Source of the DNA: a virus
Strand: one strand, 5' to 3'
IMG/VR virus record: IMGVR_UViG_3300032893_002193
Coordinates: 1-64,000 of that record
DNA length: 64,000 nt
Both the position numbers and the translations under genes were made by a program. Below are positions 14,200 through 62,458 of this stretch, piece after piece. Positions within the stretch are counted from its first letter, which is position 1. The number at the start of each line of letters is the position of its first letter. The notes beneath the pieces are model-generated. The model was not told the DNA's origin and did no database searches. It saw nothing but the letters and a program-made list of their open reading frames with translations.

Positions 14200-14550
14200 A
14201 TGGTTAGCTACCCATTTAAAATAACAAAAACCCAAGGCAGAGACTATAATTTTTTTCAAAAAGTTACCGTCACATGGAATCAATTTGGAGGCGGAGCCAC
14301 TGATGGATATTCTCCTGACTGCATAATTACTCTTCCGTCTTCTTTTTCTTCATTATGGCTAATTAATGAAACTGGCTCGACAGTTGTAGAGGTTTCATAT
14401 AATGGGTATACAGTTCATGATGAGCTTAATCCAACCATATTGCCGCAAGGAGCACAATATCTCAATAGACCGGGCTGCTCTTTGATATGGTTGCGTCTAA
14501 AAACAGGCGCTTCGGCCACTGTTAGTATTCGTGCTTGGGGAGTAAGATAG
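14200..14550 (+). CDS. Small beta-rich hypothetical protein (possible virion decoration protein)
   Basis: 116 aa with an AAGGAG RBS and beta-strand patterning; contains one DGY. Confidence 0.7.
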   Translation: MVSYPFKITKTQGRDYNFFQKVTVTWNQFGGGATDGYSPDCIITLPSSFSSLWLINETGSTVVEVSYNGYTVHDELNPTILPQGAQYLNRPGCSLIWLRLKTGASATVSIRAWGVR

Positions 14551-14567
14551 TAAGAAAGGTAAGAATT

Positions 14568-15605: not shown

Positions 15606-15608
15606 TTT

Positions 15609-15977: not shown

Positions 15978-15994
15978 CTTAATATAAATATAAT

Positions 15995-16013
15995 AATATT
16001 AATATTTCTGCAT
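15995..16013. promoter_or_regulatory. Divergent regulatory site: 12-bp palindrome AATATTAATATT providing motif A on both strands
   Basis: Plus strand reads TAATATTTCTGCAT at 16000 (29 nt to ATG 16029). Minus strand reads TAATATTATTATAT from 16001 (24 nt to ATG 15977). Confidence 0.55.
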
Positions 16014-16028: not shown

Positions 16029-16367
16029 ATGACATACATTCTTGAATATAATCCTGGCCAACAGGTAACGGTCGTATTACAAACCCTTGATTCAAATGGA
16101 ACTCGCGTAGATGGATATTCAACACCAATTGTTAATCGTATTATTATGCCTAATCTTACTTTATCGCCGGTATATCCTGTAGTTATGAGCAGACTTGACA
16201 CCGGATTATATATTCATACATTTACATTACCGTCTGGAGCGTCATCTGTTGGTACATATATTGTTGATATTTTTTGGACAGATGCTACCACAATGAAGAC
16301 TAAAAATGAAATTTATCAGGTAATAGTAAAAGCGCCTTCTGGTCAGTTTAGCGCCTCTCCTGCATAA
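16029..16367 (+). CDS. Small Ig-like beta-sandwich protein, probably virion-associated
   Basis: MSRLDTGLYIHTFTLP...VGTYIVDIFW pattern resembles the N-terminal domain of the next gene; GAGG RBS. Confidence 0.7.
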   Translation: MTYILEYNPGQQVTVVLQTLDSNGTRVDGYSTPIVNRIIMPNLTLSPVYPVVMSRLDTGLYIHTFTLPSGASSVGTYIVDIFWTDATTMKTKNEIYQVIVKAPSGQFSASPA

Positions 16368-16405: not shown

Positions 16406-17305
16406 ATGGCCATAAAATCCAGGGGGCAGTTAATTGATGTGATGGATACAGTTCAATTAAGAATTGTTTTTAGGGATCAATTCGGCGCTCCTGCTAATTT
16501 AGATAGTTTTCCACAAATTACTATTACACAGCCATCAGGAAATATATTAACTGGGCCAACAAGTGCGGGTGTATATCAGGTTTCCACTGGTACATATGGT
16601 TTTGATTATACTATCGGAATGGCTGGTCCTTATGGTGTTTGGGTAGATACTTGGGTAGGATATCTCAATGGATTTAGAATGGAGGCGGCGTTTAATTTTG
16701 TCGTCTCGCATACAGATCAGCCTGCAATTAATTCTGATGGATATGTTTCAATTGGAGATGACCCCGGATTTAATTATTCTCAAACGGCAATTTTGAATTT
16801 AAATAAATTAATAAAAACACTAAAGGCCAGATTAAATAGCGGAGGAAAATCAAGAAGTACTGATAAATACGGCAATGTGGATTATGTAGATTGTGATATT
16901 TATAGTGTTGAAATGTTAGCTACTTTTATAGCTGCATCATTATCGCAATTTAATGAAGTCCCATATTTTACATTTTTTACTTTAGAAGACACGCAAATTA
17001 TTAATCAGTTTCATAATATTTTTGTAGAAGGCGCTACACTAATGGCATTGGCTTCACAATCATTAATAGAAAGAGGCAGAGAGTTTAACATAACTGATAA
17101 CGGAATAACCTTTACTCCGCCTTCTATGAGCGAGCTCTTAAACACTCAATACGGCACACTATTAACTAATTATTATGATAAACTAAAATATATTAAGAAC
17201 TCTATGCGCAGCAGTCCGCTTGGCCTTGGCACTCTTAAACCACTTACGGCAAATTCTCCATATATAATGAGATTGAGACATCTTAAAGAAAGACAGGTTA
17301 TTTAA
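16406..17305 (+). CDS. Putative head-tail connector/neck protein with N-terminal Ig-like domain
   Basis: Ig-like N-terminus followed by a helical C-terminal region (ASLSQFNEVP, EFNITDNGITF); GGAG RBS. Function inferred from architecture and position. Confidence 0.5.
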   Translation: MAIKSRGQLIDVMDTVQLRIVFRDQFGAPANLDSFPQITITQPSGNILTGPTSAGVYQVSTGTYGFDYTIGMAGPYGVWVDTWVGYLNGFRMEAAFNFVVSHTDQPAINSDGYVSIGDDPGFNYSQTAILNLNKLIKTLKARLNSGGKSRSTDKYGNVDYVDCDIYSVEMLATFIAASLSQFNEVPYFTFFTLEDTQIINQFHNIFVEGATLMALASQSLIERGREFNITDNGITFTPPSMSELLNTQYGTLLTNYYDKLKYIKNSMRSSPLGLGTLKPLTANSPYIMRLRHLKERQVI

Positions 17306-17307: not shown

Positions 17308-18231
17308 ATGAAGAAACAAGCCGGGATTATAGAACCTCCACATAAAATGCTGGATACATTATATCAATGGACGGCAAAGTACTTCGCCGGAATTATTTTA
17401 TATAATTATCAAGAAAAATTAAAAACTGCTACAGAAAATGAAATTCCTTCTATAAGAGAGGTTATTCAAGAGGCATTAAGATTTACCAATGAAAAAATAA
17501 ATACAAATTTTAATGAAGGCAAGAGGGGAACATCTCTGCGCTGGGAATTAGACGATTGGAAATATGCAGATGATAATAAGAAAAAAAGATTTAATGATTG
17601 GGTTAATGGTGGTTTGCTGAATAATTATGTTAAGGTAGTATTTATGACAAAAGACATAAATGCTAGGGGAATTTATCAAGATGAGTTAAATGTCATTGTA
17701 TTATTTTTTACTATACCGGAGTTATCGGGCGCGGCAAGTTTTCATTGGCATTTACTTCAGTGTTATAATACCGCAAAGCATGAATTAATCCATGCATCAC
17801 AGTTTTTACTTTCCAGACTGCTTGGATTTGAGCCAACTGGTTCGAATATAATGGTTGGATTACCTGGGAAAAAGAACAAGGAATATGATCCATTAGGAAG
17901 ACCATTCGGTGAAAATAAAGAAAGATTAAAACACGAATTGCACGATTTAGAGTTTTATACCAACCTAACATCTTCTTTAGATGATTATAGGCAAGCGATA
18001 ATTTTTGAGCCAACCACAGAATTGAAAAAAGAGTTAGCTAAAATGTGGGTTGGGGCTCCTAATAAATATTTAAAAATGAAAGAGGAAAGAAAAAAAGATC
18101 ATCCAGGCGAAAGAAATCCGATTGTAATGAGAGCAATGCCTCCTTTTAAAACATTAATATATTTAGATGATGATAAATATAAAAAAGCAGTCAAGTTGTT
18201 TATGATTGAAGTTGATAAGATGATATCCTAA
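17308..18231 (+). CDS. Hypothetical protein with zincin HExxH motif
   Basis: HELIH at 17779 with a downstream Glu (HDLEFY); N-terminal MKKQAG. Confidence 0.65.
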   Translation: MKKQAGIIEPPHKMLDTLYQWTAKYFAGIILYNYQEKLKTATENEIPSIREVIQEALRFTNEKINTNFNEGKRGTSLRWELDDWKYADDNKKKRFNDWVNGGLLNNYVKVVFMTKDINARGIYQDELNVIVLFFTIPELSGAASFHWHLLQCYNTAKHELIHASQFLLSRLLGFEPTGSNIMVGLPGKKNKEYDPLGRPFGENKERLKHELHDLEFYTNLTSSLDDYRQAIIFEPTTELKKELAKMWVGAPNKYLKMKEERKKDHPGERNPIVMRAMPPFKTLIYLDDDKYKKAVKLFMIEVDKMIS

Positions 18232-18243
18232 TATTTTGGCATA
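18229..18243 (+). promoter_or_regulatory. Recurrent motif A (TAATATTTTGGCATA), putative phage promoter
   Basis: Identical 15-mer at 50944; lies 28 nt before ATG 18257. Confidence 0.55.
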
Positions 18244-18256
18244 ATTTTGAGTTATT

Positions 18257-18775
18257 ATGCATAAAAAATATACCATAGAGCAAGTGAAAAAGATTAGCCC
18301 CTCTGTCTTATTAAAACTAATACAGAAAGCTAAAGATTTTGTTAAAAAAACAGAAGCTTTTACAGAGATGTGCGAAGATTTTGATGTAAAGCCGGATATT
18401 ATAGATTTGATACCGGTTAAATTTGATGATTTAGAGGTTTCTGCTAGAACAGAAAAAGGAATAATTATTTTAAATTATAAACTTTTATGTGATGGAGATT
18501 TTTTTAAAGATTATATGTATTTATGTCATGAGGCCAGACACTATTTGCAGCAATGTTATAACGAAAAGCCTACAAGAGCTGCCACAGATGATGACTATCT
18601 TGATAATAAAGATGAGGTTGATGCATTTAAAACTCAGGTTGGATATATCGATGAAATCTTTGGTGATGATGAGGCAGAAAAATATGTTGATCATCTAACC
18701 AAATATCACGGATTGAAGGGCAGTGAAAAAGAAGAAAAAGAAGAAGAGCTGTTGGAGAAAGTAAATGAAGATTAA
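18257..18775 (+). CDS. Small zincin-like metallopeptidase-motif protein
   Basis: IILN...HEARH (18527)...YLDNKDEVDAF, an HExxH motif with a downstream Glu. Confidence 0.7.
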   Translation: MHKKYTIEQVKKISPSVLLKLIQKAKDFVKKTEAFTEMCEDFDVKPDIIDLIPVKFDDLEVSARTEKGIIILNYKLLCDGDFFKDYMYLCHEARHYLQQCYNEKPTRAATDDDYLDNKDEVDAFKTQVGYIDEIFGDDEAEKYVDHLTKYHGLKGSEKEEKEEELLEKVNED

Positions 18776-21680
18776 AATTGCTCAAAATACCCTTCTTGAT
18801 GAGGCTCTTAATAGGCTATTAGATAGCTATCATAAACAATTATCTTTATTTCAAAAGGGATATGGGGGCAGACCGGCTCAAGAAAATATAGAACCTCCAA
18901 AAAAAGAACCGGAACCATATAAATTAGAATATCCAGAACTTTCACAAGAGCAGCTTAAAAGCAGAAAATTAACAACAGAAGAAATTGAGGAAAGTCAGAA
19001 AGAATTAGAAGAAATTAAAGATAGAAAATATTGGGAATTTGAAAGAAAAAAAGAAATAGAAGAACAATTAGAATTAAACAAAAGATTAGGTGTAGAAGAA
19101 ATTATTAAGAAAGAAATAATAAAAAAATATAATGAATTAAGAAATAAAAGCATAGAGTTTTATAAAGCCTATCAAGAAGCAAACGATCTGTGCGAAGAAG
19201 CCCCAGTAATTGACATTAATTTTGATACTGCAACATATATAGAAGTTTTTAAAACGCTTCCCGATGTAATAGAAACGGCTGCCAAAAATAATATAGGTTA
19301 TTTATTTGGATTAATTAAAAGCCAAACAAGATCTGGAAGATATGGCGGAGGGTTTCCTAACGATAGATATAGGCTTGATAAATTAGTAAATTTTATTAAT
19401 AAAGAAAAACTGAATATTTTTAATATTACTCCGGCTAATTTTAAAGATACGATTGATAAGATGTCTCAAATCATATCTATAATGGATGGAATATTATTAG
19501 AATACAATAAAAGGAAAAAATTATTATTATATTTAAAAAAGAATGTAAAACAAAACATTGATAATTTTTTGTCTGATCCAGAAACAATTAAATTTTTATC
19601 TTGGATGGATGAATATTATAAGGATGAAAAACAAGAGATATTTGAAACCTATTTAAATAAATTTTCTTCTGGGGACACAGATGTTATTCTAAATTTAAAA
19701 ACATATAAATCTATCTACGAATCCATATCTAATAAATTTAAATATTCTCTTAAAGATCTAAGAGAAGAGAAAGAGTATGAGATAGAAAAAGTTATATTTG
19801 AAGAATTAGAATTAATAACCAATGAGTATTTAAAACATCTTCGATCAAATATACTTCCGATGTGTTCGGTTGACAATATCGATCCATTATTTAAATATTT
19901 GCAAAAAGAAAATATTATGGATTTAAAATCAATTTTTTATTTCATAAAAAATTGTGTTAATCGAGAAGTTTCTGATTTTTTAAAAGATAAGGATAATGAG
20001 AAAAAACAAGCAAGAATAAAAGAAGTAATTGATGACTTTATACTTCACTTTATTAATGATATTTCGAAAAAAAAATTAAGTTTATATAAAAATACCCTTG
20101 TTTTATTGCTTCCTAAAAACATATCATTAATCGATCTTGCTTCAAAAATGACAAAAAAAGATATTTATGAAATGAGTAAGAAAGTAATTAGAGAATTTGT
20201 CTTAAAGTGTATACCGAGAATGGAGACTGGACATGGCTTTTCCTTGGAGGCAGATTACACCGGATACTTACCACCAATATCTGCTATAAATAATCTTTTA
20301 AATAATACTGGAAAAATTTCTATAGAAGCTATTACCAATCATTGTTTAGAAAAAAATCCAAGTATACCAAGAGATTTTTGCGCCGCTCTTGTTAAAAATA
20401 TTATTAATAGTGGTAGAAATTTAGAAATTTTAGAAAAAATGGGCAACTATGAAGAGCCTGGTTTTAAATTTATATTAGAGTTTCTTAAAAAAAATAATAA
20501 ATATGATACTAATAATTTTATTAACTTTGTCATAAATAATGGTTCTAAAGCTAATTATTTATTATATAGTATTGTTAGAGAAATGGGATTAAGTTATGAT
20601 GAGGCGGTTGAAGTGGCTGTCTCCGGCATCAGAAAAATAGAAACTTTTGATAAAGATCAGTCAAATTTAATTGATGCCGTTCGAGAATTACACAATTCTG
20701 TTAGCGGTGTTGGAACAAAAGCAATAATTAATATATTGAAAAATAGAAATTTTAATAATTTTAATAACACCGGAATAGTAAAAAAATTAATTATTGCATA
20801 TGCTCAACTTATGAAAGAGGGGGGGATAAAAGGAATTGAACAAAAATTCGGATCGTTATTATTAGAGTTTAAGCGAAGAGGATATATTAGCAAAGATTTT
20901 TCTAAAAATGCTAAATTAATTCAAAAATTTTTCGAATCAAATGAAGTAATTAATCCATCAAGCACATTATTTTCAGAAATTTTTCAGGCGACAACCAAAT
21001 TTGAAACAGATTTATCATTTTTACAAATGGGTGATGCTTTAATTGAATTAACCAAAGATTATCAGGTTAAAGATAAAAATTTATTTAAATTAAATCATTC
21101 TATGTCAGATAATTTAAGATTTTCCGTATTAAAAGATAAAGATCCAAGAATTTTAAGGGTAGGAATAGAAACCAATTGTTGTCAGCGAATTGGTGGTGTT
21201 GGCGAAGCTGCAGCCAGAGACTCCTTTATGAACCCGCTTTCTAGCGTTTTAATATTAGAGTGGAAGGATAACGAGGGCAAATGGAGAATATTGACTCAAA
21301 GCTATTTTCATTATGTGCCAAAAGATAATGGATTTATTCTTGATAACATTGAATATAATCGAGAAAATGTTCGAGAAAGCGGTGTAGATTTAGATAGGAT
21401 TTATGCCGAATATGCAAATTCAATGAAAGATAAATTAAAATTATCTTATTTTTTGGCAGGAAAGGGATATTCAAAAATAAATCCTGACAATTTTAAAACA
21501 TATGTAATTACCGGAGGAGATCCGAGATATTTTGATCCAAGGGCGACAAAAAATAATGAATATACTGATTTTAACCCCAGAGGCTCCATAGATTTGCTTT
21601 CTCCTAAATTTGAAATTAAAAAGAAAGCATTTATTCAAAATTTAAGAATGGTGATTTTTGGCGCCCCGATTTTCACTTAA
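18765..21680 (+). CDS. Large Lys/Glu-rich helical hypothetical protein (possible internal head or ejected protein)
   Basis: 971 aa, very A-rich and charged. The C-terminal globular domain looks conserved (VGIETNCCQRIGGVGE, ILDNIE). N-terminal MKIKIAQ. Confidence 0.75.
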   Translation: MKIKIAQNTLLDEALNRLLDSYHKQLSLFQKGYGGRPAQENIEPPKKEPEPYKLEYPELSQEQLKSRKLTTEEIEESQKELEEIKDRKYWEFERKKEIEEQLELNKRLGVEEIIKKEIIKKYNELRNKSIEFYKAYQEANDLCEEAPVIDINFDTATYIEVFKTLPDVIETAAKNNIGYLFGLIKSQTRSGRYGGGFPNDRYRLDKLVNFINKEKLNIFNITPANFKDTIDKMSQIISIMDGILLEYNKRKKLLLYLKKNVKQNIDNFLSDPETIKFLSWMDEYYKDEKQEIFETYLNKFSSGDTDVILNLKTYKSIYESISNKFKYSLKDLREEKEYEIEKVIFEELELITNEYLKHLRSNILPMCSVDNIDPLFKYLQKENIMDLKSIFYFIKNCVNREVSDFLKDKDNEKKQARIKEVIDDFILHFINDISKKKLSLYKNTLVLLLPKNISLIDLASKMTKKDIYEMSKKVIREFVLKCIPRMETGHGFSLEADYTGYLPPISAINNLLNNTGKISIEAITNHCLEKNPSIPRDFCAALVKNIINSGRNLEILEKMGNYEEPGFKFILEFLKKNNKYDTNNFINFVINNGSKANYLLYSIVREMGLSYDEAVEVAVSGIRKIETFDKDQSNLIDAVRELHNSVSGVGTKAIINILKNRNFNNFNNTGIVKKLIIAYAQLMKEGGIKGIEQKFGSLLLEFKRRGYISKDFSKNAKLIQKFFESNEVINPSSTLFSEIFQATTKFETDLSFLQMGDALIELTKDYQVKDKNLFKLNHSMSDNLRFSVLKDKDPRILRVGIETNCCQRIGGVGEAAARDSFMNPLSSVLILEWKDNEGKWRILTQSYFHYVPKDNGFILDNIEYNRENVRESGVDLDRIYAEYANSMKDKLKLSYFLAGKGYSKINPDNFKTYVITGGDPRYFDPRATKNNEYTDFNPRGSIDLLSPKFEIKKKAFIQNLRMVIFGAPIFT

Positions 21681-21700: not shown

Positions 21701-23311
21701 ATGCCATATTATTTAAATAATACCAACGAAGGCTTAAAAAAAACAACAAGTCTTGGGGACGGATCCTCAATTAAACTTGATTGGTATTCTGCTTATCCCA
21801 GTAATAGATCTAATAAAATTGCCTATAATATATATGTTGATACAAATCCAATTACCTTTGAAGATAATTTTTTTAATAAAACGCCAGTATTTATTTCTGT
21901 CGGAGGGGCAACAAGCGCAACTATAACCGGATTAACTCCAGGCGTTTTGTATCATTTTGGTGTAAGGGCAGTAGAATATGATCCGAGCAGCGTAGATTTT
22001 AGCAAGCTTCCTCAACAAAATGGAATATATATTTATCCATCATCATTATTGAGATCGAGTATTACCGCTACCAGTTCTATAATACCACTTGCCGATGCAG
22101 AGTTTTTTCCTAATCACGGTGTTATAAAAATAGGGGTTGAATTAATTTATTATTCTTCTGTTGATTATGTTAATAATAATTTGTTGCTAAATAATCCTAC
22201 TATTCAAAGGGGATATAATGGCACAACTGCAACATTTCATACTACAGATGGATATGATGGATACACATACTGGGACCCATCTGTAATATTTTATCCAATT
22301 GATTCTGAAGAGCAAAATACGGTTGTCTTTGAATGTCAGAATAGGTTTGATGTTGGCAATTATTCTTTTACTTTAATTGACGGATATCATCAAAAAACAA
22401 AAGATATATTAAATACTGATTTATCTGGAAGTGATGCTGGGAATGTGAATTTTCCATCGTATGATTATAGCGGATATCATAGAACAGATCCGACGCTATT
22501 ATTCTCTGGAGCTTGTGTTGGTAGCTATATCGGCGGAGAGTATTATTGTGCAGACGGATATAGCGGCGTAGGTAGAAAGTTACGCGGACTCAATTTACAA
22601 AATATTAATGATCAAAGACAAGAGCAGTTATTATTGTTAACTGGAGAACCTTGTTGCATTATAAGAAGAAATTTTACAGGCATAACTTGTGATTGTTATA
22701 TTCCTGGACGAGAATATCCCGAAAGCAGGTGCGAAAGCTGCTTCGGCACAGGTCAGGTAGTGGGCTATATTCAGCTTTTTAATTTTGGACGACGAAGTGA
22801 TTTAAGGTTTTTAATTAGATTTAGTCCGGCAGACGATCAGGTTAAAATGTTAGATACCGGATTAGAGAGTGAATTAAATGTTTCTGCTTGGACCTTAACA
22901 TATCCATCAATACATTCTCGTGATGTTATTTGTAGATTCGATGAAAATGGCAACGATGAATTTAGATATGAAGTAATTTCTGTTAATAGAAATAAGATGA
23001 TGTTTAGTCTTTCTGGCGGACAACATATGAGTTTGCAAAGAATTAGAAAAACAGATCCTATTTATCAGGTTCCAGTTTTACGAGATGGTTCTGACTTTCC
23101 ACAATCTATTAATACTTCAGTTGGTTCTGCTATACCGGCAATTGCTCCACATATCCATGAAATAGTTATTAATGAAAAATATCCACAGTTACTTCCGCAG
23201 CTCACATCTGTAAATGCCGGTCATAACCACGCAATATCTTATGATAAAAATAGCGGAACAATAACCCTATTGCCAGAATTAGGACATTCGCATACTATTG
23301 TATATCCTTAA
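21701..23311 (+). CDS. Putative neck/head-closure protein with N-terminal fibronectin type III domain and Cys/His metal sites
   Basis: FN3 pattern (IKLDW, YNIY, ITGLTPGVLYHFGVRAV), CDC...CESCFGTG zinc motif, beta-barrel-like middle, and C-terminal HIH/HNH/HSH. The neck role is an inference. Confidence 0.6.
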   Translation: MPYYLNNTNEGLKKTTSLGDGSSIKLDWYSAYPSNRSNKIAYNIYVDTNPITFEDNFFNKTPVFISVGGATSATITGLTPGVLYHFGVRAVEYDPSSVDFSKLPQQNGIYIYPSSLLRSSITATSSIIPLADAEFFPNHGVIKIGVELIYYSSVDYVNNNLLLNNPTIQRGYNGTTATFHTTDGYDGYTYWDPSVIFYPIDSEEQNTVVFECQNRFDVGNYSFTLIDGYHQKTKDILNTDLSGSDAGNVNFPSYDYSGYHRTDPTLLFSGACVGSYIGGEYYCADGYSGVGRKLRGLNLQNINDQRQEQLLLLTGEPCCIIRRNFTGITCDCYIPGREYPESRCESCFGTGQVVGYIQLFNFGRRSDLRFLIRFSPADDQVKMLDTGLESELNVSAWTLTYPSIHSRDVICRFDENGNDEFRYEVISVNRNKMMFSLSGGQHMSLQRIRKTDPIYQVPVLRDGSDFPQSINTSVGSAIPAIAPHIHEIVINEKYPQLLPQLTSVNAGHNHAISYDKNSGTITLLPELGHSHTIVYP

Positions 23312-35571: not shown

Positions 35572-36198
35572 ATGGCTCTTTTAACACCACAAACCGGATC
35601 GATTATAGAAAATCCAAATGGATCTAATAGAACCGGCACAGCACTATCTACTAACATAGTAATTAGAGTTGGACCTAACGCAGTAGGTGCGGTTCAAAGC
35701 TTAAGTGTAACCGAAGAAAGATCAATTATAATGATAGATGAAGTCGGCACAGATGGTCATATTGATTCCGCCCCACAAAGAAGTACAAATATAACCGGAT
35801 CGTGCAACAGAATTCGTTTTGATAGACTTCGCGTTTCAGAGGCATTTTCTAGAGGATTTTTACACGCACATGCTCAACGCATTCCTTTTGATATAGATAT
35901 TTATGACAAATGGAATGGCGATGGCAATAGCATGATTGTCACTACGATTAAAAATGTATGGATTTCTAATATATCATATGATTATAGATCGGAAAACTTC
36001 ATCATAGCCGATACAATGCAGTGGCAAGCAGAAGCCATTTCTAGCTCAATTAATGGCGCCAGCGCTGCAGTTGGTGGTGCTAGAAACCTAGTTCTTCAAA
36101 CAGATACTCTAGGAATTGAGCAGCAAGCAGATAGAGGACAGCGTAGAGGTTCGTTAGACGCTCCTGGTTTAATTAATGCTGTTTTCGCAAATTTCTAA
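35572..36198 (+). CDS. Tail tube protein
   Basis: Follows the sheath gene; VGAVQSLSVTEER, PFDIDIYD and TIKNVWISNISYDY motifs fit gp19-like tubes. Confidence 0.8.
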   Translation: MALLTPQTGSIIENPNGSNRTGTALSTNIVIRVGPNAVGAVQSLSVTEERSIIMIDEVGTDGHIDSAPQRSTNITGSCNRIRFDRLRVSEAFSRGFLHAHAQRIPFDIDIYDKWNGDGNSMIVTTIKNVWISNISYDYRSENFIIADTMQWQAEAISSSINGASAAVGGARNLVLQTDTLGIEQQADRGQRRGSLDAPGLINAVFANF

Positions 36199-36274
36199 TT
36201 AGTATTTTCTCTGCAATATTTTAAAAACTTCGGATATAGTATAGGTGTAACCTAGTAATTTATCTGGAGTTTTT

Positions 36275-36925: not shown

Positions 36926-37278
36926 TTAAGGATCCATCACAGAGATTTTTATGGTTTTTAAGCAAAACATATAAAAAATTTCCAGATGATCCTGAATTTG
37001 AAGAGATGGATCCAAATCTTAAATTTCTAATGTTTAGTCATTGGATAGAAGACCAGTCAGAGAAAATTGATATTTTAAAAAATCACGGATATTTGATTGG
37101 TTCGTTTATTAATCCGGAAGCGGTTAGCAAGATACTTGGATCTGGTAGTAAGCACTTCGAATCTACAGAAGAAGATTTTGAAGAAACATCTCGCTTAATT
37201 TTTGAGCATAATAATATGGAAGAAAAAAAAGAACAATCTAAACGCAAGAAAAAGAAAAAAAAGTTAATAAGAGCGTAA
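36922..37278 (+). CDS. C-terminal extension of the frameshifted tail chaperone (lambda GT-like; fusion about 334 aa)
   Basis: The open frame extends 28 codons upstream of the tracked ATG 37006 back to the slippery site, and ends 1 nt before the tape measure start. Confidence 0.75.
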   Translation: MVKDPSQRFLWFLSKTYKKFPDDPEFEEMDPNLKFLMFSHWIEDQSEKIDILKNHGYLIGSFINPEAVSKILGSGSKHFESTEEDFEETSRLIFEHNNMEEKKEQSKRKKKKKKLIRA

Positions 37279-37279
37279 T

Positions 37280-39259: not shown

Positions 39260-39268
39260 CGAGACATT

Positions 39269-40111: not shown

Positions 40112-40120
40112 GGTAAGTTA

Positions 40121-50967: not shown

Positions 50968-51402
50968 ATGTCATTCGATCTAAAAATATCAGCCGGAGAT
51001 TTAGTTTTAAAGAATGGTCAGCTTGATGTAGTCACTGGCCAGCAAAAACTAATTCAGGATATATTAAAAATTTGTTTAACCAAGGCAGGAACGAATATCT
51101 ATCAGCCGTGGTATGGTTCATTTTTAAGCAAGTCTGTAATAGGATCTGGATTAGATGCGTCTATAATGTTTGATGTTGCAAGAAGTCAATTACAAACAGC
51201 TATTGAAAATCTTAAAAAAGTTCAAGAATTACAGTCATCTAGTGGCCAAAAAATGACTCCAGATGAACAAATATCATATATTAGTGATATATCTATTAAT
51301 AGGAACCAGATCGATCCTAGATTAATAGAGGTTTATGTAAGCGTTTTAACAAGAGCATTTACTAGAGCTAATGCCAGCTTCCAGATAAATAATCTAACAT
51401 AA
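50968..51402 (+). CDS. Baseplate wedge / sheath initiator (T4 gp25/P2 gpW-like)
   Basis: DLKI..GDL, KLIQDILK.CLT..GT...PWYGS.L and DPRLIEVYVSV motifs; precedes baseplate J. Confidence 0.85.
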   Translation: MSFDLKISAGDLVLKNGQLDVVTGQQKLIQDILKICLTKAGTNIYQPWYGSFLSKSVIGSGLDASIMFDVARSQLQTAIENLKKVQELQSSSGQKMTPDEQISYISDISINRNQIDPRLIEVYVSVLTRAFTRANASFQINNLT

Positions 51403-54400: not shown

Positions 54401-55517
54401 GAACGATGATGTTATGTCGGCCGGAGATGAGGTTCTTGTTGTTTACTTTGTATCAAGAAATTTAAGACAAACACCATCAAGATTAGCGATTACTACTACC
54501 GATCAAATAAATAATAGCGGCGTAATTACCGTTTACGGAGAGACAATTACGAAGGTAGCTGATGTTGTATTTACTGCAATTTATACTGGATTAAAGCAAA
54601 ATATTTCAGAGGCAATAAGAACATTTTTATCAATAAATTCAAATACATCGATACCATCTAATACTTCATTAATTAGAGTTGTTAAGCTTGAAAAAGTTAA
54701 TGCCACCACAGATAATCAGGTTATATCGGTTATAAATTCATTTGATGTGCAGGGAACGCAAATCAAAAATGGTATTTATTACTCAAATGAAATGATAGTT
54801 AATAATTCATTAGATGTTTTTGATTTGATTTTGCCGCCAACAGAAAATAATAACACTTATGTTCCACAAATAGGCGATAAATTAAGAATAACTTTTTATT
54901 ACTCTACTGTTGGAGATAATGAGGCTCTCTTCTTTACTAGAAATGGAACCCTCTATACTAATAAAATATTTGCCTTTATAGACAAGGCATATATTTCTAG
55001 CGGATTTACGGCCTCACAGTCAACTAAATTTACTATAAGTTATTTTAATCAACCCGCTAATGGATCGAGATATCAGGCTTTTTACGACTATCTGGCCCCA
55101 AAACAAAATGAAAGAATTACAATAAGATATAATTATAACAAATTAATAGGAGATACCACTTTTAATATAGAGAGTTCAAGACCTATTACGGCAGATGTTT
55201 TAGTAAAGGCCGCAACTAAGGTTTTAGTTGATATTACTATGAATATAGTGGTTAAAACCGAGTTCTCTTCATCTTCTGATGTTGTCGTTCAGGATGTAAA
55301 AGATAAGATAACCTCAGCAATCAATACAAATGTTCTTGGAGATGTATTAAACGGCTCTGATCTAATTAGTGTTGCTCAGGGAGTGAATGGCGTTGATAGA
55401 GTTAGAATAATTTATTTTAATAAGGACGGTGTTACTGGTCAGGTATTAACTATAACTGCTCAAAAAAATGAATATTTTTCCGCAAATAGTGTTATAATTA
55501 ATACTGAGAGCAGATAA
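51417..55517 (+). CDS. Baseplate J-like wedge protein (T4 gp6/P2 gpJ) with large insertions
   Basis: PGSVIRDL, GSDLDKLAQNFGVSRKAA, CTTPGSSGN, TGGTDQEDDATFRNR, GGKVDV and C-terminal VNGVDRV. Confidence 0.9.
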   Translation: MVKIRSANEIILNLLDFYRTSQPEANISPGSVIRDLFIEAPAGQISLLYDELSKISNLQALRLAVGSDLDKLAQNFGVSRKAAAKSSGVAIFTFSSIPATVSLSAGELVFSSNGSSFSIANGVSVNPNYLNLYKSVAAKYANDLSFLNITDQYAIEVTVQCTTPGSSGNIDKYAINSTNIVGVSNVTNVIPFTGGTDQEDDATFRNRVLAIFSGSNVGTALGYKNTALSDPSVLDALVIEPGDPLMTRDGSVVTLNSDGSYTIVSEGQGGKVDVIILGTRESEYIDTFIYQDKSNNNDPTDTKNIYVLGQIAADANKTVTRRRIDDINNSTLPAQPVDEVLEVTGSLSGSNFVPKTTDSLGRISGNYELIKDTGIYAGSPFGFDKFHWVSNKISLFEEDRVKGKFCGQDNLTFTDVLEIPQIQQNISIINENSTISNGDRSYLQLLHTPITNVTRVFNVNTGERYTIVNQNPDGNGSVNTTGRIQISGNTLPTSSDVLQVDYTWILNFDPYVDYDGRYLNNNPRSVQDSIDWGIANTVRKEFISFSLDGSGAFYSGLSKHPVNYIVSANVFSRMDGYVSTVSSGNFAGRMAIYLNGIAQDIANIDSIRLQNSNLEVYNTAQNDGVFFSQRVVLGANIVYNYTIILPSDTPVVQNEHVTVIYNVYDSFRVGNINGNFSNNQITIPAANIVSAASLTSPIASIVLDVSYVSNVQNALVNSITNFPISRLGNGFISSSNAGFLNNFVDNVSKIENQVVQKNSLNQLYITLSINSNDYYLSANNVLSAIRLGDGKELWNADNLGTVSQDSNSNYLLIFNGYNSPAVGDKVMIVYYPLDNNRSQPFTFLNSTIRRDISTLQFDYVNSNFYVPFYTLTSQASVQFQLIDPTTGLVVSSGSDGYIVPSLDFSQAVFGSLSFNFGSIINIPSLKLRVMNSSIVNNNAIYDIDGYNSTNNTINILNVLSNLDLSQISIIRVLDGKDLWNSSCSIDFVNRRFIIPNDDVMSAGDEVLVVYFVSRNLRQTPSRLAITTTDQINNSGVITVYGETITKVADVVFTAIYTGLKQNISEAIRTFLSINSNTSIPSNTSLIRVVKLEKVNATTDNQVISVINSFDVQGTQIKNGIYYSNEMIVNNSLDVFDLILPPTENNNTYVPQIGDKLRITFYYSTVGDNEALFFTRNGTLYTNKIFAFIDKAYISSGFTASQSTKFTISYFNQPANGSRYQAFYDYLAPKQNERITIRYNYNKLIGDTTFNIESSRPITADVLVKAATKVLVDITMNIVVKTEFSSSSDVVVQDVKDKITSAINTNVLGDVLNGSDLISVAQGVNGVDRVRIIYFNKDGVTGQVLTITAQKNEYFSANSVIINTESR

Positions 55518-58500
55518 TGTCAAACCTTAGAATAATTTCTGTAAATGTTATAGATAGTACGCATATATCCGTAAAATTTACCGCTAATCTTATACAAAAC
55601 TTATCAACACTAAATGTGTCTATAGCCTCTCAGGTTACAGGTATACCAGATTCGTCTGCTGTCGAAGTTTCTGTTTCTGGAGATACGCTAGAAATAACAT
55701 GTTTGCCGTTAACTCCGGTTACTGCATATTTTTTAACATTACAATCGACCAGCTCAAATCCATTTACCTCAATCAATGGCGACGCTATCTTACTTGAAGA
55801 TGGTGTGGCCAATCAAAAATTAATATTTGGGCCGGTAGAGGCAGAAAATGATGTAAAAACAAATTTAGTAAATTATTTAAGAGATACTATTTATAATACT
55901 GACAATGGAACAATTATATCCAGCTATCTTGATGCCGTTGCCTTATTATTCTCTAAGGCGCTATATGATATTAAGCAGGTAAAAAACGAAAATTATATTT
56001 CTACCTTAATTACCGATGAACAGAAAACAAGATCTAGCGGCCCATTTGATAGACTTAATGAAGAAGGCGCATACGAGATATTAAGAGTTAGCAAATACAA
56101 AACTGGTACGCAAAATCCATTTAGTTTTACATATTCTGATTTTCCGTCTAATCCCGTTTCTTTGCAGCAACTTGAAACAGAAGATAGTCTAACCGCAAAT
56201 TCTATAGATGGAGATTTGTTATTTAATATCAATACATTTGTTCTTAATTTATCAAGAAGATTTGTTATTAAGGTTAACTCTATAACTTTTAATTATTCTA
56301 ATGGAATGAATCCATATGTTTATAATATTTCTGAGTATGGATATCAAATACTTGATTCTACCTACGATCAAGACAATGCCTTTACATATTTATTGTTAAA
56401 CGATAATCAGATCAAATTAAATGAAAAAATTCTTCAAGATAGCAATTTCTCAACACAAAATATTTCGAGCATAATTGTTGATTATTATTATAAAGACACA
56501 GGAAGGATAGTTTCTTCAGCCTCTGTTAATGTCTACGCAATAATGCCTTCGGGTAGGGAAGTGTTGCCTGCATTAGAAAATATATTTAATCTTCAACATG
56601 CTCCGCTAACCGATTTAAATGGTAATAGCGTATCCTTAAACGGAATTTCATTTATTAATCCAAATAGCATACCGGAATTAAATTCTCCTCATCCCGCCTT
56701 TTTGTATGAGGTTCCCTTTAGATTAGATTATCTGCCATCAAGACCGGGAGAATATTCCGTTGATTATTCTACCGGTACGGTTTATGTATTTGGAGCAGAT
56801 AATACTCAAGATGGAACCGGGCCAACTCCTCCTTTAGCAGTTTATTACTATAAATATAGTTTCGTTTCAAATGTAGACTATATATATGATGAAGATCTTT
56901 GTGAGCTTGTTGCCCTACCTAATGGAAGCCTAACCGGCAATCCTGGAATAATAAATTTTACCGCAGAGCCTGGATTAGCCCTCGATATAGATTACAGGGC
57001 CAATATACATCAAGAATCGTTAAATGAAAGAATAAAAAATAATTTAACATCTCTTGGTTCTCTTCTTACATCTAATTCTCCAATAACAAATGTTTTTAGA
57101 ATATATAATGAAACATCTGGAGAAATATATACGCCGACAAGATGGAATAATAATAAAGTTTATTTTTCATATAATAAACCACCAAGATTAATTGCCGCTA
57201 CAAGAGAGCGCGCTACATTTGAGGTTGTTAGCAATGAAATATTATTTGTCAATAATACTATTTCTACATCTAATCCATCTATAAATATTTTTAAAATATT
57301 ATTAACTAACAATAATATCATATCTCAAAGCGAAGATTGTATAGGATCTTCATTAAATACAAGCGTCTCATTTTCAAATAACAGCATATTTTCTCAAGAA
57401 GTATATTATGATAATACACAATCAGAAACTGCTAACCTAACAAGACTTGGACAAGTTGGATATTATCAAATAAATTATACCAATGGAATAGTATATGTCG
57501 CAGTTCAGTCAACTCAAGGGCTAAATATTGGATCTGTCTCATATAAGAAAGATAGTATTTCTCCAAATAATCCGCATGTAACCAGCGTAGAAGATATTTA
57601 TTATCAATTTAGTTCAATATCTCAAAAAGAAAAACACTTTGATTATATTAGTTTTTCTGATGGAAGTATAATACCAAGAACATTTGATGTATCAAACGAA
57701 AGATTTTTAAATAATAATGCAGCCTACCAATATATCCTGTCCTATGGAACAGTCGGTACATTCTTAGATTCTATTTTTGTTGCTGGTGTTTCTCAAAATA
57801 TTAAATTTATAAGAGGAGTTTATGAAATTACAGATGTATTAAATAATATATCTCCAATAAACTTCTCTGCATCATCAACTTTCAATGGAACCACATTAAA
57901 TGTCAATCCATTAATTTATAACGAGTATCATACTATTCAATATGATGGTGTCCACTATTACATAACACTAAATACTCCACTTTACTTTCTATCACCAAAT
58001 ATTTCATTAAATATTAGTGTTATAAGAAGCTCGGATAGTGCGTCATTATGGAATAATTCTGGCACAATTTCTTTAGGAAATCCATTAAAATTAATTTTAC
58101 CAGGCATTAATTCCCCACATGCCGGAGATTTTGTGGATGTAACCTATACATTTACTATTAATAATTTTTCAAGCGTTATAATAGATTATAATAAAGGTGA
58201 TTATTATATTGACTATACATATCTTGCCGATGAGATATTGGTTAGTTATGAATATGGAGACAATGTTCTTGATTTTCGCCAATCACAAGCATTAGATATT
58301 GGAGATACCTACTATGTTTCTTATAGAGTTGGGGCTTTAAGAGACGCATTACTAAAAAATTTCGGAACATTAATAAATATACCATTATTAACAAATTTTT
58401 CTATTGATTTCGAAAGAGAAAGATACAGAGATGCAATTCAAGCCGCAATGCATTCTTTCGTTGATGGCCCTACCGTTTCTTCTATTAAAAATATAGTTTC

Positions 58501-61500
58501 AACAATCACTCATACTCCAACAGAAATTATAGAATCAGCCTTTAATAATTGGTCTCTTGGAAATAGTATATTGGTTCCTGAACAATTTTCTACTACCGGC
58601 TCATTTGCATTAGTTCCGGCAAAATTTGGATCTGGAGTAAAAATAGATCAACCAGATCAAACCATAAAACTTCCAGTTGCAGGAAATTTAAGAATAGAGG
58701 AAGGAACGATTGAATCGTGGGTATTTCCTGAATGGAATGGATTAGATAATTTGTCCCAACTTACCTTACAAATTAATAAAAACGGTTCTCCATTACCAGA
58801 AAATATGATTTTTCTTGGTCCCAGTGAATATCATCCAGAATACACATATAATTTCGGAACCTATTCTATTACTATTGATAAAAATAGCAATGTACAGGGT
58901 AAACCAAATAAAAATAAAAATGGTGTATTTATTTATTATGATAAGGACCAGAGCGGACTATTTTCTCGTTGGTATTTAGAGGTTATTGATGGCTATGATG
59001 ATGGATATTCGTTAAAAAACTACAATATATCTATTAAAACAAACGGTAATTTCTACGATTCAAAGTTTTTATATACATTTAAGCCAGCAACAGGATCAAT
59101 ATTTACCGGAACCAATTCTCTTACCTATAACATTACAAATGATGCTAATGTTGGTCAAGGAATAACTTTTATAGCCGATAATAGACATTATTTGTTTGAT
59201 TATGGAGAGGCGGCAGATAAAAACAGAATATCTATTTATAAAGATGAGAGCGGGTATTTAAATTTCAAAGTTTATGATAAAAACTCAAACTCATCCTCTA
59301 TATCGGCCGATGTTTCTTCATGGGTTTCAGGAAATCCTCACTATATCTCTGCTTCATGGAAAATTAACAATAGCACCAACAGAGATGAGCTGCATTTGTT
59401 TATTGATGGTTTAGAAGTTCCGAATATTATTAGATATGGAAATACTGTATATCCGTATCTGCATGAAAAATTTAGGACGGTCAATCCAGAAGAAATTGTG
59501 GGTGTAATCGGATCTAATATAGTTGCCTCTAATGATCTTGTTGTAATTGCAGGATCTAATGTAGTATCATCATCATTAAATTTTTCGGCATACGGTATTG
59601 TGAACGGAAACACCATTTACATTGAAGAGTCTGGGTTTAGTCCATCTGGATATACAATAACAAATGTTAATGGAAATAATTTAACACTGTCTACAACGAT
59701 GCCGTCCTCAGCAACTGGCGCATCCTTCTCTGTGAATAAGACAACCTTTAATGTTAGCACAGAAGTAAGTATTTATGATAATATAGCCATATCATTACTT
59801 CATTCTGCCCTCACATCTAATGACATGCAGACATTTGCTGGTTCCTATACAGTAAATACTACTACTACAAATTTTACCACTCATAATATTCTTCCCGGTT
59901 ATTATTTGAGAATTATCGGAGGTTCATTTACCTCTGTTTATACTATTTTAAGTGTTTCATCAAATATGTTGGTGTTAAATAACCCTATGCCAACTACAGC
60001 ATCTAATTTAACATTTTTTGTCTACTCAAATCAGGATCAAGAAATACCCGGACAGCGCGCTCTTTATCCAGCATATACAATAAATTCAGTTAATAATATT
60101 TCTATTAGAGATAAGGCTCTTGCTAACGATATTGTTTTAATAAAAACTCTTGGTATCAATCATAGAAGAACAAGACAGCGATATTATTTATGGGGCAATT
60201 CATCTAATATTATAAAAACACAATTGCCACCACCATCATCATTAAGTCAAGTAAATATATATAAGGTTTTATTAACAAAGACCGCGATAGGTCCGTTAAA
60301 TTCAACATTAATGGCCGGAATTTTTCAATCCAACAATATATCTACCGATCAAACAACCAATAATATTAGCGGAAGAAGTCTCTCTGTATCTATTAATGGA
60401 ACTAATATAGATTTTTCTTATCCTGTAGCAGTTTCTATTAATGGAACAATCGTTAACCAAATTACCGGAGCGCAGTCTACCGGAACAGAAACATTGTCAT
60501 TTACTGGTGTCGGAAGTCTTGGAACACTAAATACCACCAATATGTTTGCATCTGTTAACTACATTCAGGTAAATTGCAAACCAATTAATTCAACACAAAA
60601 TTGTCTTTATGTTGAAGTTAAAGAAAGATACTCCTTAACCCAATTAGAAAATAACGCAGGCTATGTATCTAATATTGGTCCAATCGTTTATCCGTTAATT
60701 AGATTTAGTTATCAGGTATCATATGGAAATACATTAGATGGATATGGTAATGGATTTACCGTTCACGATGCTAATAATTTATTCTCTAACACATTAATTG
60801 GAAATTACTTACATATTATGAGTCCGCCACAGGTTGCTGGATATTATAATATTTCCGGAGTCTCTTCTGATTTCAAGACTTTAACTCTAACACAATTATC
60901 AGGATCGCATAGTTTACCGCTACCGTCCTTCTCTAATGGAACATATGAGGTATTAAATATCTCTACTTCTAATAGCGGTTTACAAAATGGTTTCTTCACA
61001 TTTGAAAGCAATCAATATGCCGGGATACCATATTTATTAACTCAAGGGGCATATGATTTTGATTATTACACCTACTTATCTATACCGTTTGAAATAAATA
61101 GTCCTTATTTTTATATTGGATCTAATCTCTTTGGAAATAACCAATTTGATGGGGTCATAGATGAATTTAAAATAACAGATTCTATGCTCACAGATACAAG
61201 AACGGGAGAAATAGTTAGCTCTTCTCAAGAAACAATTACTAAAAACTATAATTCATTAAAGCCACTAAATATAAGTAAAAATACTTTGGTTATGGCCAGA
61301 TTTGATGTATATCCATTTGTTAATGATGCAGATTTCTACATAACATCTAATACCAATTACATTCAATCTGGATATAGCGTTAATAGTAATTTTAATAAAA
61401 GCATATCCATTAAAAATAATTTCATTAGAGTGGAAAATGATGGAATTTTAAATACAAAAACAGAAGGAACTATAGAGTTTTGGATCAATCCCATCTATGA

Positions 61501-62458
61501 TACTTTTAATGACCCGAATTATAGGTTTTATTTTGATGCTACTTCAATAGTTAGTGAGAATATTGTAAGCACTAATAATGTTACCGCCGTTGTTTCTGGA
61601 AAAATTGGTAAGGTAGTTAGTGTTAAGATGCAATTTGGAGACAGCTCTATTGATTATTTTGTCGGTGGAACAGTAGATAGTGATGGACAAACAATAAGGT
61701 TAAATAGAGATCTTCCTGCACAAAATACTCCGGTTATAGTTCAATATATACCATCTGGAACAAATGGAAATAGAATATCTATCTATAAAGATCCCTATGG
61801 TTATGTTAATTTTACTATAAACGCAGATAGTATAGAATATCAGGTTAGAGCCCCAATTTTCTGGAGTGGCGGTAGCTGGCATAGAATAAAGGCCAGCTAT
61901 AAGATGAATAAGGGAGTTGGAAGTGATGAATTGCGCCTATTCGTTGACGGCTACGAAAGAGGAAATATATTGTGGGGTAACGGATTAATATTTGGTCAGG
62001 GTCTAGTTTTCGGATCTTCCTATGTAGGATCTAATCAGGTTAATGCTAATCTGAAATTTGCCGATACTATTAATGAGTTTTATATAGGCTCTGATTTCAC
62101 TGGCAATAACTGCGCATATTCCTTATTTGATAATTTGAGAATTAGCAATATATCAAGGTCTATATATAAGCCTTTCGGTGAGTCTATAGATCCTAATTAC
62201 AGCTCTAATTTAAATATTGTTTTGCCGGTTACCCAAGATCTATACACTACACTTTTGCTTGATTTTGAAACCGCCATACAGAAAAATACTGATTTTTCGG
62301 TTATTAGAAACGGTCAGGTCGGCCTGTTTGATTTCCAGGTTAATGTTTATGACTCTTTTGACCTAATAGGATCTAATCAAGCACTAAAAAATGTTCTAGA
62401 AACACTGGTTAATAGTCTTAAGCCAGCTAACTCTCGCGTTTTCTTTGTATATAAATGA
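55517..62458 (+). CDS. Giant baseplate wedge protein (gp7/gpI-like) with two LamG/concanavalin-like domains
   Basis: NFGTLINIP...ERYRDAIQA...GPTVSSIKNIV and terminal LKPANSR are gpI-like elements. Duplicated EGTIE.W / RISIYKD / DEL.LF.DG / FYIGS motifs mark the LamG domains. Confidence 0.75.
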   Translation: MSNLRIISVNVIDSTHISVKFTANLIQNLSTLNVSIASQVTGIPDSSAVEVSVSGDTLEITCLPLTPVTAYFLTLQSTSSNPFTSINGDAILLEDGVANQKLIFGPVEAENDVKTNLVNYLRDTIYNTDNGTIISSYLDAVALLFSKALYDIKQVKNENYISTLITDEQKTRSSGPFDRLNEEGAYEILRVSKYKTGTQNPFSFTYSDFPSNPVSLQQLETEDSLTANSIDGDLLFNINTFVLNLSRRFVIKVNSITFNYSNGMNPYVYNISEYGYQILDSTYDQDNAFTYLLLNDNQIKLNEKILQDSNFSTQNISSIIVDYYYKDTGRIVSSASVNVYAIMPSGREVLPALENIFNLQHAPLTDLNGNSVSLNGISFINPNSIPELNSPHPAFLYEVPFRLDYLPSRPGEYSVDYSTGTVYVFGADNTQDGTGPTPPLAVYYYKYSFVSNVDYIYDEDLCELVALPNGSLTGNPGIINFTAEPGLALDIDYRANIHQESLNERIKNNLTSLGSLLTSNSPITNVFRIYNETSGEIYTPTRWNNNKVYFSYNKPPRLIAATRERATFEVVSNEILFVNNTISTSNPSINIFKILLTNNNIISQSEDCIGSSLNTSVSFSNNSIFSQEVYYDNTQSETANLTRLGQVGYYQINYTNGIVYVAVQSTQGLNIGSVSYKKDSISPNNPHVTSVEDIYYQFSSISQKEKHFDYISFSDGSIIPRTFDVSNERFLNNNAAYQYILSYGTVGTFLDSIFVAGVSQNIKFIRGVYEITDVLNNISPINFSASSTFNGTTLNVNPLIYNEYHTIQYDGVHYYITLNTPLYFLSPNISLNISVIRSSDSASLWNNSGTISLGNPLKLILPGINSPHAGDFVDVTYTFTINNFSSVIIDYNKGDYYIDYTYLADEILVSYEYGDNVLDFRQSQALDIGDTYYVSYRVGALRDALLKNFGTLINIPLLTNFSIDFERERYRDAIQAAMHSFVDGPTVSSIKNIVSTITHTPTEIIESAFNNWSLGNSILVPEQFSTTGSFALVPAKFGSGVKIDQPDQTIKLPVAGNLRIEEGTIESWVFPEWNGLDNLSQLTLQINKNGSPLPENMIFLGPSEYHPEYTYNFGTYSITIDKNSNVQGKPNKNKNGVFIYYDKDQSGLFSRWYLEVIDGYDDGYSLKNYNISIKTNGNFYDSKFLYTFKPATGSIFTGTNSLTYNITNDANVGQGITFIADNRHYLFDYGEAADKNRISIYKDESGYLNFKVYDKNSNSSSISADVSSWVSGNPHYISASWKINNSTNRDELHLFIDGLEVPNIIRYGNTVYPYLHEKFRTVNPEEIVGVIGSNIVASNDLVVIAGSNVVSSSLNFSAYGIVNGNTIYIEESGFSPSGYTITNVNGNNLTLSTTMPSSATGASFSVNKTTFNVSTEVSIYDNIAISLLHSALTSNDMQTFAGSYTVNTTTTNFTTHNILPGYYLRIIGGSFTSVYTILSVSSNMLVLNNPMPTTASNLTFFVYSNQDQEIPGQRALYPAYTINSVNNISIRDKALANDIVLIKTLGINHRRTRQRYYLWGNSSNIIKTQLPPPSSLSQVNIYKVLLTKTAIGPLNSTLMAGIFQSNNISTDQTTNNISGRSLSVSINGTNIDFSYPVAVSINGTIVNQITGAQSTGTETLSFTGVGSLGTLNTTNMFASVNYIQVNCKPINSTQNCLYVEVKERYSLTQLENNAGYVSNIGPIVYPLIRFSYQVSYGNTLDGYGNGFTVHDANNLFSNTLIGNYLHIMSPPQVAGYYNISGVSSDFKTLTLTQLSGSHSLPLPSFSNGTYEVLNISTSNSGLQNGFFTFESNQYAGIPYLLTQGAYDFDYYTYLSIPFEINSPYFYIGSNLFGNNQFDGVIDEFKITDSMLTDTRTGEIVSSSQETITKNYNSLKPLNISKNTLVMARFDVYPFVNDADFYITSNTNYIQSGYSVNSNFNKSISIKNNFIRVENDGILNTKTEGTIEFWINPIYDTFNDPNYRFYFDATSIVSENIVSTNNVTAVVSGKIGKVVSVKMQFGDSSIDYFVGGTVDSDGQTIRLNRDLPAQNTPVIVQYIPSGTNGNRISIYKDPYGYVNFTINADSIEYQVRAPIFWSGGSWHRIKASYKMNKGVGSDELRLFVDGYERGNILWGNGLIFGQGLVFGSSYVGSNQVNANLKFADTINEFYIGSDFTGNNCAYSLFDNLRISNISRSIYKPFGESIDPNYSSNLNIVLPVTQDLYTTLLLDFETAIQKNTDFSVIRNGQVGLFDFQVNVYDSFDLIGSNQALKNVLETLVNSLKPANSRVFFVYK

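Follow-up and report, generated by a model that had tools for sequence, protein, structure and literature searches.

An exact Asp-Gly-Tyr tripeptide on outward virion proteins of a clade of uncultured huge phages and its possible role as a surface tag

DGY-bearing genes of the virion module

The stretch of viral DNA analysed here (the window, 64 kb of IMG/VR record IMGVR_UViG_3300032893_002193) makes up the initial four fifths of a virus contig of 80,057 bp and encodes tail, baseplate and fibre proteins in which the tripeptide Asp-Gly-Tyr (DGY) recurs far above expectation. Nearly all genes of the window lie on the + strand. The contractile tail sheath (32689–35490, + strand) is recognised by PHROG and Pfam and by Foldseek matches to phage sheaths (E 1e-12). 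Judged by the sheath, the closest named phages in GenBank are Eggerthella phage LE2-3 and Bacillus phage G, and both are only remotely related. Approximately 100 relatives with 46–70% sheath identity were observed in IMG/VR on contigs of up to 480 kb, which indicates that the present contig is a fragment of an uncultured huge phage. A search of the literature returned no description of a DGY motif in phages.

A preliminary description of this sequence had counted 20 DGY tripeptides in the window, and every one of them translates in frame, within nine + strand open reading frames (ORFs). Three short genes carry a single site each: a 116-residue protein without a PHROG or Pfam match (14200–14550, site at 14302), a 112-residue protein (16029–16367, site at 16110) and a 299-residue protein (16406–17305, site at 16736). 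A 536-residue fibre-like protein with a weak N-terminal FN3 match (21701–23311) carries four sites (22247, 22256, 22379 and 22553), and the tandem DGYGDGY (28132 and 28144) is located in a 1495-residue virion protein of unassigned fold (26290–30777). The 933-residue sheath contains DGY at 33133 (residue 149) and 33952 (residue 422), both in insertion domains outside the conserved C-terminal core. Two sites (48508 and 49030) belong to a 695-residue protein (47182–49269) encoded between the inner-tail block and the gp25-like gene. The 1366-residue baseplate J-like protein (51417–55517) has three sites (53139, 54099 and 54246), all outside its Baseplate_J core (residues 2–277), and the 2313-residue LamG-bearing baseplate/fibre protein (55517–62458) has four (58988, 59000, 60737 and 61946). 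Eight further sites lie on the contig past the window. Three of them (contig 64907, 65201 and 65450) are in a dockerin-bearing 1078-residue fibre protein, whose + strand gene starts at 62495 and continues beyond the window end, so that its 5´ part occupies 62495–64000; four (contig 66716, 67004, 67295 and 67457) are in the product of the next gene (contig 65741–68359), a protein with nine Big_3_5 repeats; the last is at contig 79739. The tandem forms described previously are all present (DGYDGY at 22247/22256, DGYGDGY at 28132/28144 and DGYDDGY at 58988/59000), and these three tandem copies compare with 0.24 expected by chance in this genome.

The nine proteins had been considered unrelated, which is not wholly the case. 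A domain of approximately 90 residues is common to the sheath (residues 486–578, window 34144–34422), the J-like protein (residues 867–955, window 54015–54281), the 2313-residue protein and the 1078-residue protein; the sheath and J-like copies are 40% identical and the other two copies are weaker. This domain holds sites 54099 and 54246, and the two DGY positions of the baseplate copy read DGT and TGY in the sheath copy. Hidden paralogy was rejected as a general cause of the recurrence, because an all-against-all BLAST comparison gives only this one small shared domain, with 2 of the 28 contig sites, and because a Big_3_5-like context holds only 7 of the 630 fibre-gene sites counted in relatives.

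Three regions contain no DGY (3563–14127, 17308–21680 and 35572–47130), as the preliminary description had noted. The first includes an accessory cassette of glycosyltransferase (GT), methyltransferase and nucleoside diphosphate (NDP)-sugar genes (3563–13262, + strand). The third is a block of seven + strand genes that separates the sheath gene from the baseplate genes, to which tube, assembly, 1662-residue tape-measure-like and hub/spike functions are assigned from gene order. The absence from the inner and enzyme genes is not significant within this window alone, because only about 0.7 and 2 sites are expected there. A pectate-lyase-like spike N-terminus (23321–25786) and the gp25-like baseplate protein (50968–51402) are further landmarks. 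The 536-residue fibre-like protein has invariant cysteines (C272, C283, C330, C332, C344 and C347) and three HxH motifs near its C-terminus (H484/H486, H508/H510 and H529/H531), a pattern that resembles the metal-binding tips of T4-type fibres and suggests a trimeric, metal-stabilised neck or collar fibre. In the 1078-residue fibre protein, Pfam recognises a calcium-binding repeat of dockerin type I (E 3.5e-6, L001:2250-2324, contig 64250–64324); relatives have two dockerin loops, with Tyr frequently after DG.

Excess, exactness and outward location

The enrichment had been proposed from a rough composition estimate and holds beyond both composition and the preference for DG. For the 39 ORFs of the window (20,731 residues), 4.1 DGY are expected from global composition, 3.8 from the composition of each protein and 6.6 from a first-order Markov model (DG × GY / G), compared with the 20 observed. 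None of 5000 within-protein shuffles reached 20, the maximum being 13. Among the 8000 tripeptides DGY is the third most enriched, and only GPQ and PQG, the collagen repeats of the first ORF, rank above it. Over the whole contig, 28 in-frame DGY compare with 4.6 from composition (P 1.7e-13) and 8.4 from the Markov model (P 8e-8), which is a conservative model since the DGY sites themselves inflate the DG and GY counts. Tyr follows DG in 28 of 129 cases on the contig, NG shows no such preference, and D-x-Y with any residue other than Gly in the middle is at expectation.

The signal is at the protein level, as had been suggested from the varied codons. The degenerate sequence GAYGGNTAY occurs 29 times on the + strand of the contig, 28 of them in frame, and three times on the - strand, and codon choice within DGY matches the background; a DNA-level motif is thereby ruled out as the cause. 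The broader proposal that nothing is selected, and that the excess is a composition artefact, a recount of inherited sites or a signal in the DNA, can draw on the homology of the relatives, whose pooled counts are not independent, and on the two window sites within the shuffled paralogous domain. This proposal is hardly credible, since the single genome alone is significant under the conservative Markov model, the excess survives in non-redundant contexts (149 of 419), permuted tripeptides of identical composition are at chance, off-frame and - strand GAYGGNTAY are rare with codons as in the background, and the excess is kept over a wide range of base composition.

In the sheath and neck loci of approximately 100 relatives (GC 29–48%), 807 DGY were observed compared with 82 expected, and the excess persists across this whole range. 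In 75 contigs with a conserved GT4 gene, 630 DGY (38.6 expected) occur in the fibre genes of the 10 kb upstream of this gene, and 15 (24 expected) in the 10 kb downstream of it. Pooled over 708 non-identical ORFs of the relatives, DGY is enriched 9.4-fold. Single-residue variants in these ORFs remain near or below expectation or reach at most twofold (NGY 0.94, EGY 1.2, SGY 1.1, DAY 0.5, DSY 1.8, DGF 2.0, DGW 0.5, DGV 1.1 and DGI 0.9), and the five permutations of DGY lie between 0.7 and 2.3. All three positions are thus exact. DGY in this respect resembles a sequon: it is a short exact motif with a potential acceptor residue, and it is over-represented on candidate substrate proteins.

The excess is specific to this huge-phage clade when compared with three other phages. 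The virion module of LE2-3 has no excess (2 DGY, 2.9 expected), nor has phage G (4 DGY, 3.7 expected), and the annotated virion genes of T4 show a mild one (6 DGY, 2.3 expected). Given the exactness of the motif and its little or no excess in these phages, a general β-turn preference cannot be the whole story. In a separate T4 stretch (70–120 kb), 4 of 11 DGY fall in the paralogous GIY-YIG homing endonucleases SegB, SegC, SegD and SegE, an example of how paralogy can mimic motif excess.

DGY is concentrated in the outer proteins of the virion. In the complete relative G003 (447,763 bp), 41 of 50 DGY lie within the virion module at 300–400 kb, and the remaining proteome of approximately 82,000 residues is at chance (9 DGY, 10 expected). 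A 1226-residue ORF of G003 with seven DGY (C1:395566-399243, minus strand) is the neighbour of a collagen-like gene at the distal end of the virion module and has no counterpart on the present contig. Families rich in DGY are the neck proteins, the 536-residue and 1495-residue proteins, a 263-residue protein encoded before the sheath, and the sheath itself. The inner families (the tube-position protein, its neighbours and the 1662-residue tape-measure-like protein) contain two DGY in 132,193 residues of homologues, and the tube-position family has none in 66 homologues. With related contexts collapsed, the outer families have Tyr after 149 of their 419 DG, and the inner families after 2 of their 165 (Fisher P 6e-23). 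Within the sheath family, all 28 DGY columns fall in the insertion domains, at residues 59–611, and none in the core at residues 630–933. The conserved core of sheath proteins forms the inner sheath layer.

Conservation, recurrent gain and structural setting

Conservation in homologues, which the preliminary description had proposed as a check, is mixed: some sites are fixed and many are lineage-specific. DGY at sheath residue 422 is kept in 63 of 70 homologues. In the 536-residue protein, the site at residue 227 is kept in 24 of 24 homologues, and those at residues 186, 285 and 183 in 15, 16 and 10 of the 24. The 299-residue protein has an invariant DGY at residue 111 (13 of 13), and the two sites of the 1495-residue tandem are kept in 26 of 46 and 42 of 46 homologues, the latter at residue 619. 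The family of this protein holds 232 DGY compared with 17 expected, and that of the 112-residue protein 22 compared with 0.6 expected in 12 homologues. The G003 homologue of the 695-residue protein has three DGY. In six families, DGY columns were classed as conserved (11), intermediate (11) or sporadic (85); each permutation gives 7–20 sporadic columns, compared with the 85 for DGY, a count that misalignment in variable regions may inflate somewhat. The motif has been gained repeatedly in separate lineages.

The 247 non-redundant contexts share no common flanking consensus. The hydrophobic fraction is raised at the position before DGY (0.41) and at the position after it (0.45) relative to a background of 0.33, which suggests that, within a strand, Asp and Tyr would lie on the polar, exposed face. 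Known domains that bear DG often appear to have been retro-fitted with Tyr in this clade. Tyr follows DG in 33 of 53 LamG-like 'l.lYvDG' strands and in 23 of 68 dockerin-like calcium loops, and the window site at 61946 falls in the LamG 'l.lfVDG' strand of the 2313-residue protein. In EF-hand-type loops, the position after DG faces the solvent.

The sheath was modelled at a confidence (predicted local distance difference test, pLDDT) of 78. Residue 149 lies at a strand end entering a short helix, and neither sheath site forms a two-residue hairpin. Across the sheath family, loops, insertions or strand edges hold most of the DGY columns. The prediction that the sites are exposed loop insertions therefore agrees with most sporadic sheath sites, which are in loops, insertions and strand ends, and fails at residue 422, which is inside a predicted strand. 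The AlphaFold2 model of the 536-residue protein has pLDDT below 50 at residues 216–305 and is uninformative for its sites at 227 and 285.

These settings bear on a serious, if rather unlikely, rival explanation, in which DGY would be an intrinsic structural micro-motif (an Asx-turn or strand end, with Asp capping the backbone, Gly providing the geometry and the Tyr hydroxyl a hydrogen bond) that was spread through the β-rich outer domains of this lineage by domain shuffling and convergent stabilisation and that nothing reads. Asp-Gly is a classic tight-turn dipeptide, and sites are observed at the conserved DG of known folds (LamG 'l.lYvDG', Big_3_5 'V.F.DG' and dockerin loops). Strict conservation over 40–60% identity is observed at many sites, Phe is the commonest replacement of Tyr, a helical tape-measure-like protein is among the DGY-free families, and the T4 virion genes show their mild excess (6 compared with 2.3). 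In turns, however, Asn can stand in for Asp, and Phe, Val or Ile can replace Tyr, yet NGY is at chance and DGF is enriched twofold compared with 9.4-fold for DGY. A universal motif would be expected in excess in LE2-3 and phage G as well, and neither shows it; the rest of the G003 proteome is at chance, the 85 sporadic, lineage-specific columns lack common flanks, and the modelled sheath sites are not two-residue hairpins. The tyrosine-corner spacing DG.Y is not enriched, with 8 instances on the contig compared with 28 DGY.

Three specific structural candidates were rejected as sufficient or general explanations. A generic hairpin of the strand-DG-strand kind, in which Tyr would begin the second strand, is insufficient, given that NGY, DGF, DGV and DGI are not comparably enriched, that the unrelated phages have no excess, that the flanks show no hairpin consensus and that the sheath sites are not such hairpins. 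The tyrosine corner, (L)-x-(P/D)-G-x-Y with Tyr four residues after the corner start, does not match the observed spacing (8 DG.Y, 28 DGY). The dockerin/EF-hand calcium loop (D-x-[DN]-x-D-G, then [IVL]-x3-[DE]) covers 23 of more than 1300 DGY in the clade, and the window's own dockerin-like loop reads DGV.

The calcium loops are also relevant to the proposal that DGY binds ligands directly, with carboxylate and phenol as weak sites for host surface glycans or metal ions that would make the tail exterior sticky to the host envelope. Asp and an aromatic residue are a common sugar-binding pair, some DGY of the relatives lie in calcium-binding dockerin-like loops, the protein at 21701–23311 has HxH motifs of a metal-binding type, and the sites are on outward-facing domains. 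A ligand site, however, usually requires a defined pocket and at least three side chains, most DGY are outside a D-x-[DN]-x-DG calcium context, and Trp and Phe, which are at least as good at sugar stacking, are not favoured after DG. Direct ligand binding is accordingly judged quite improbable.

A proposed surface tag, its possible reader and known systems

Two sets of GT genes need to be distinguished. The cassette within the window had been put forward as a possible companion of the motif, and this link is unsupported: its GT2-TPR-GT4 fusion and C-methyltransferase have no counterpart in four complete relatives (435–480 kb), and the three of these that were examined for DGY keep the excess. 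As the cassette is not conserved in the complete relatives, it is not the general reader of DGY. It sits directly behind a Thr-rich collagen-like gene, whose product is its likelier substrate. The complete relatives G001, G002 and G004 (435–480 kb, estimated 100% complete) are labelled 'provirus' by IMG/VR, which is odd at such a size and may be a classifier artefact.

A second GT block follows the fibre genes outside the window (contig 68397–73093) and comprises a GT4, a GT2, a possible β-barrel protein, a second GT2 and an NDP-sugar 4,6-dehydratase. This block is present in every relative examined, namely the relatives G001–G005 and the 75 contigs. A locus search with the GT4 as a single sequence returned two weak matches only. 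The 328-residue conserved protein of the block (L001:8302-9288) has outer-membrane β-barrels (CopB, PagL and usher) as its nearest Atlas look-alikes, at low TM scores (0.26–0.31). Downstream of the block lie a tubulin/TubZ-like gene (PhuZ-type) and then a GH25 muramidase (L001:11641-13880), both with homologues in G003. Four core glycosyltransferases have been described in 200–307-kb phages in the 'moraphage' paper (PMC12619734), which could not be tied to the present clade of 435–480-kb genomes.

The preliminary description had read DGY as a short surface tag. Protein-level selection, exactness at three positions, the outward proteins and domains, recurrent gain and clade specificity all fit this reading; its link to the GT cassette of the window is the part that is unsupported. 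A short surface tag that is read by a clade-specific factor appears to be the most economical reading of the sequences. DGY would be a self-contained three-residue tag, repeatedly installed on the outward parts of neck, sheath, baseplate and fibre proteins. Asp and Tyr, two residues apart with the side-chain-free Gly between them, would project from the same side of an extended chain, and a trans-acting factor specific to the clade would read the pair. We infer that something reads DGY, that this reader may be a glycosyltransferase and that Tyr may be the acceptor. The leading candidate, to which a probability of approximately 0.4 is assigned, is a tag combined with covalent modification of Tyr by the conserved GT block. 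The Tyr hydroxyl would be modified by cytoplasmic O-glycosylation through the GT4-GT2-GT2 and NDP-sugar 4,6-dehydratase block, with Asp at -2 in the role of the acidic -2 residue of the PglB sequon. In its fullest form, DGY would be the sequon of a new tyrosine-directed modification, most simply O-glycosylation by the GT4/GT2/GT2 block, that coats the tail, baseplate and fibres across phages of 350–480 kb; this form is tentative and somewhat doubtful.

The exactness, outward location, recurrence and tandem clustering of DGY fit non-covalent docking equally well. A common partner, such as a decoration protein, a collagen-like fibre or an assembly chaperone, would bind the Asp/Tyr pair, and many weak copies would add up to avidity along neck, sheath and baseplate. 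Among the products of the contig are several small unassigned virion proteins and a collagen-like fibre whose C-terminal domain is globular. Three residues on folded domains are nevertheless very little for a specific protein-protein contact, no candidate partner co-varies with the motif, and the collagen gene and cassette are not conserved in complete relatives that retain DGY. Docking is thus considered unlikely.

Several observations weigh against a covalently modified tag. A GT4 profile search gave 75 matches, all in this clade, and found no clade member without the GT4, so the association of the GT block with DGY is inseparable from shared ancestry. A profile search of solved structures with the GT4 returned generic GT-B enzymes only, and the enzymes of the block might act on something else, such as Thr-rich collagen-like fibres, DNA or host polymers. 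O-glycosylation of Tyr is rare. The non-virion proteins of G003 are not depleted of DGY, so a promiscuous cytoplasmic reader would need to be harmless there. At conserved sites the most frequent substitute for Tyr is Phe (21 cases), and Ala, Thr or Lys take the place of Gly; each residue may therefore also play a structural role. In the sheath model residue 422, the best-conserved site, is within a long strand of an insertion domain and at no loop tip. With related sequences collapsed, the inner tail proteins do not significantly avoid DGY, as 2 of 165 is not below the frequency of Tyr (P 0.11); they show absence of enrichment and not avoidance.

If DGY is read, it would be the first known case of a sequon-like code spread over the outside of a phage particle, and its acceptor chemistry (Tyr) would probably be new among virus-encoded modification systems. 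A three-residue code present virion-wide, in dozens of structural proteins that are unrelated to one another, would have implications for the ways in which huge phages protect their large tails or direct them to a target. Protein engineering could gain a tag that is both portable and very small, and as a signature DGY would mark, among the uncharacterised proteins of these uncultured phages, those exposed on the virion. Even as a purely structural element, a tripeptide that one lineage has enriched tenfold in its exact form would be an uncommon example of motif fixation by convergence.

Among known sequons are D/E-X-N-X-S/T of Campylobacter PglB, N-X-S/T of NGT/HMW1C and D-(S/T)-(A/I/L/V/M/T) in Bacteroidota O-glycosylation. 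Like DGY, bacterial sequons are only three to five residues long, place an acidic residue at -1 or -2 relative to the acceptor, are scattered over unrelated surface proteins, and are gained and lost. DGY differs in that its presumed acceptor is Tyr and not Asn, Ser or Thr, its middle Gly is fixed, and its candidate targets are virion proteins assembled in the cytoplasm.

Mycobacteriophage virions are glycosylated by phage-encoded glycosyltransferases (Freeman et al. 2023, Cell Host Microbe 31:1216, as cited in PMC12619734). The present clade resembles this system, as far as it is summarised there, in having phage-encoded soluble GTs beside structural genes, here a GT4 and two GT2 that immediately follow the fibre genes, and in the virion exterior as the proposed target. 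The same summary places the mycobacteriophage glycans on C-terminal tails of capsid and tail-tube subunits, whereas DGY is internal and is carried by proteins of the neck, sheath, baseplate and fibres but by none of the tube family. Tyrosine O-glycosylation is known from the S-layer proteins of Paenibacillus alvei and Thermoanaerobacter (review PMC2943079). As in the role proposed for DGY, the Tyr hydroxyl is there the glycan acceptor on a repetitive surface array; in contrast to it, S-layer systems use a membrane oligosaccharyltransferase outside the cytoplasm and lipid-linked glycans. We know of no DGY consensus in S-layer glycosylation. Asp-Gly tight turns (type I´ β-turn and Asx-turn) and the Greek-key tyrosine corner share with DGY the position of DG at strand ends and a Tyr near the turn. 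Turn statistics, however, accept Asn for Asp and many residues after Gly, and the tyrosine corner has its Tyr two residues after Gly, whereas only the exact D-G-Y is enriched here, and in one clade.

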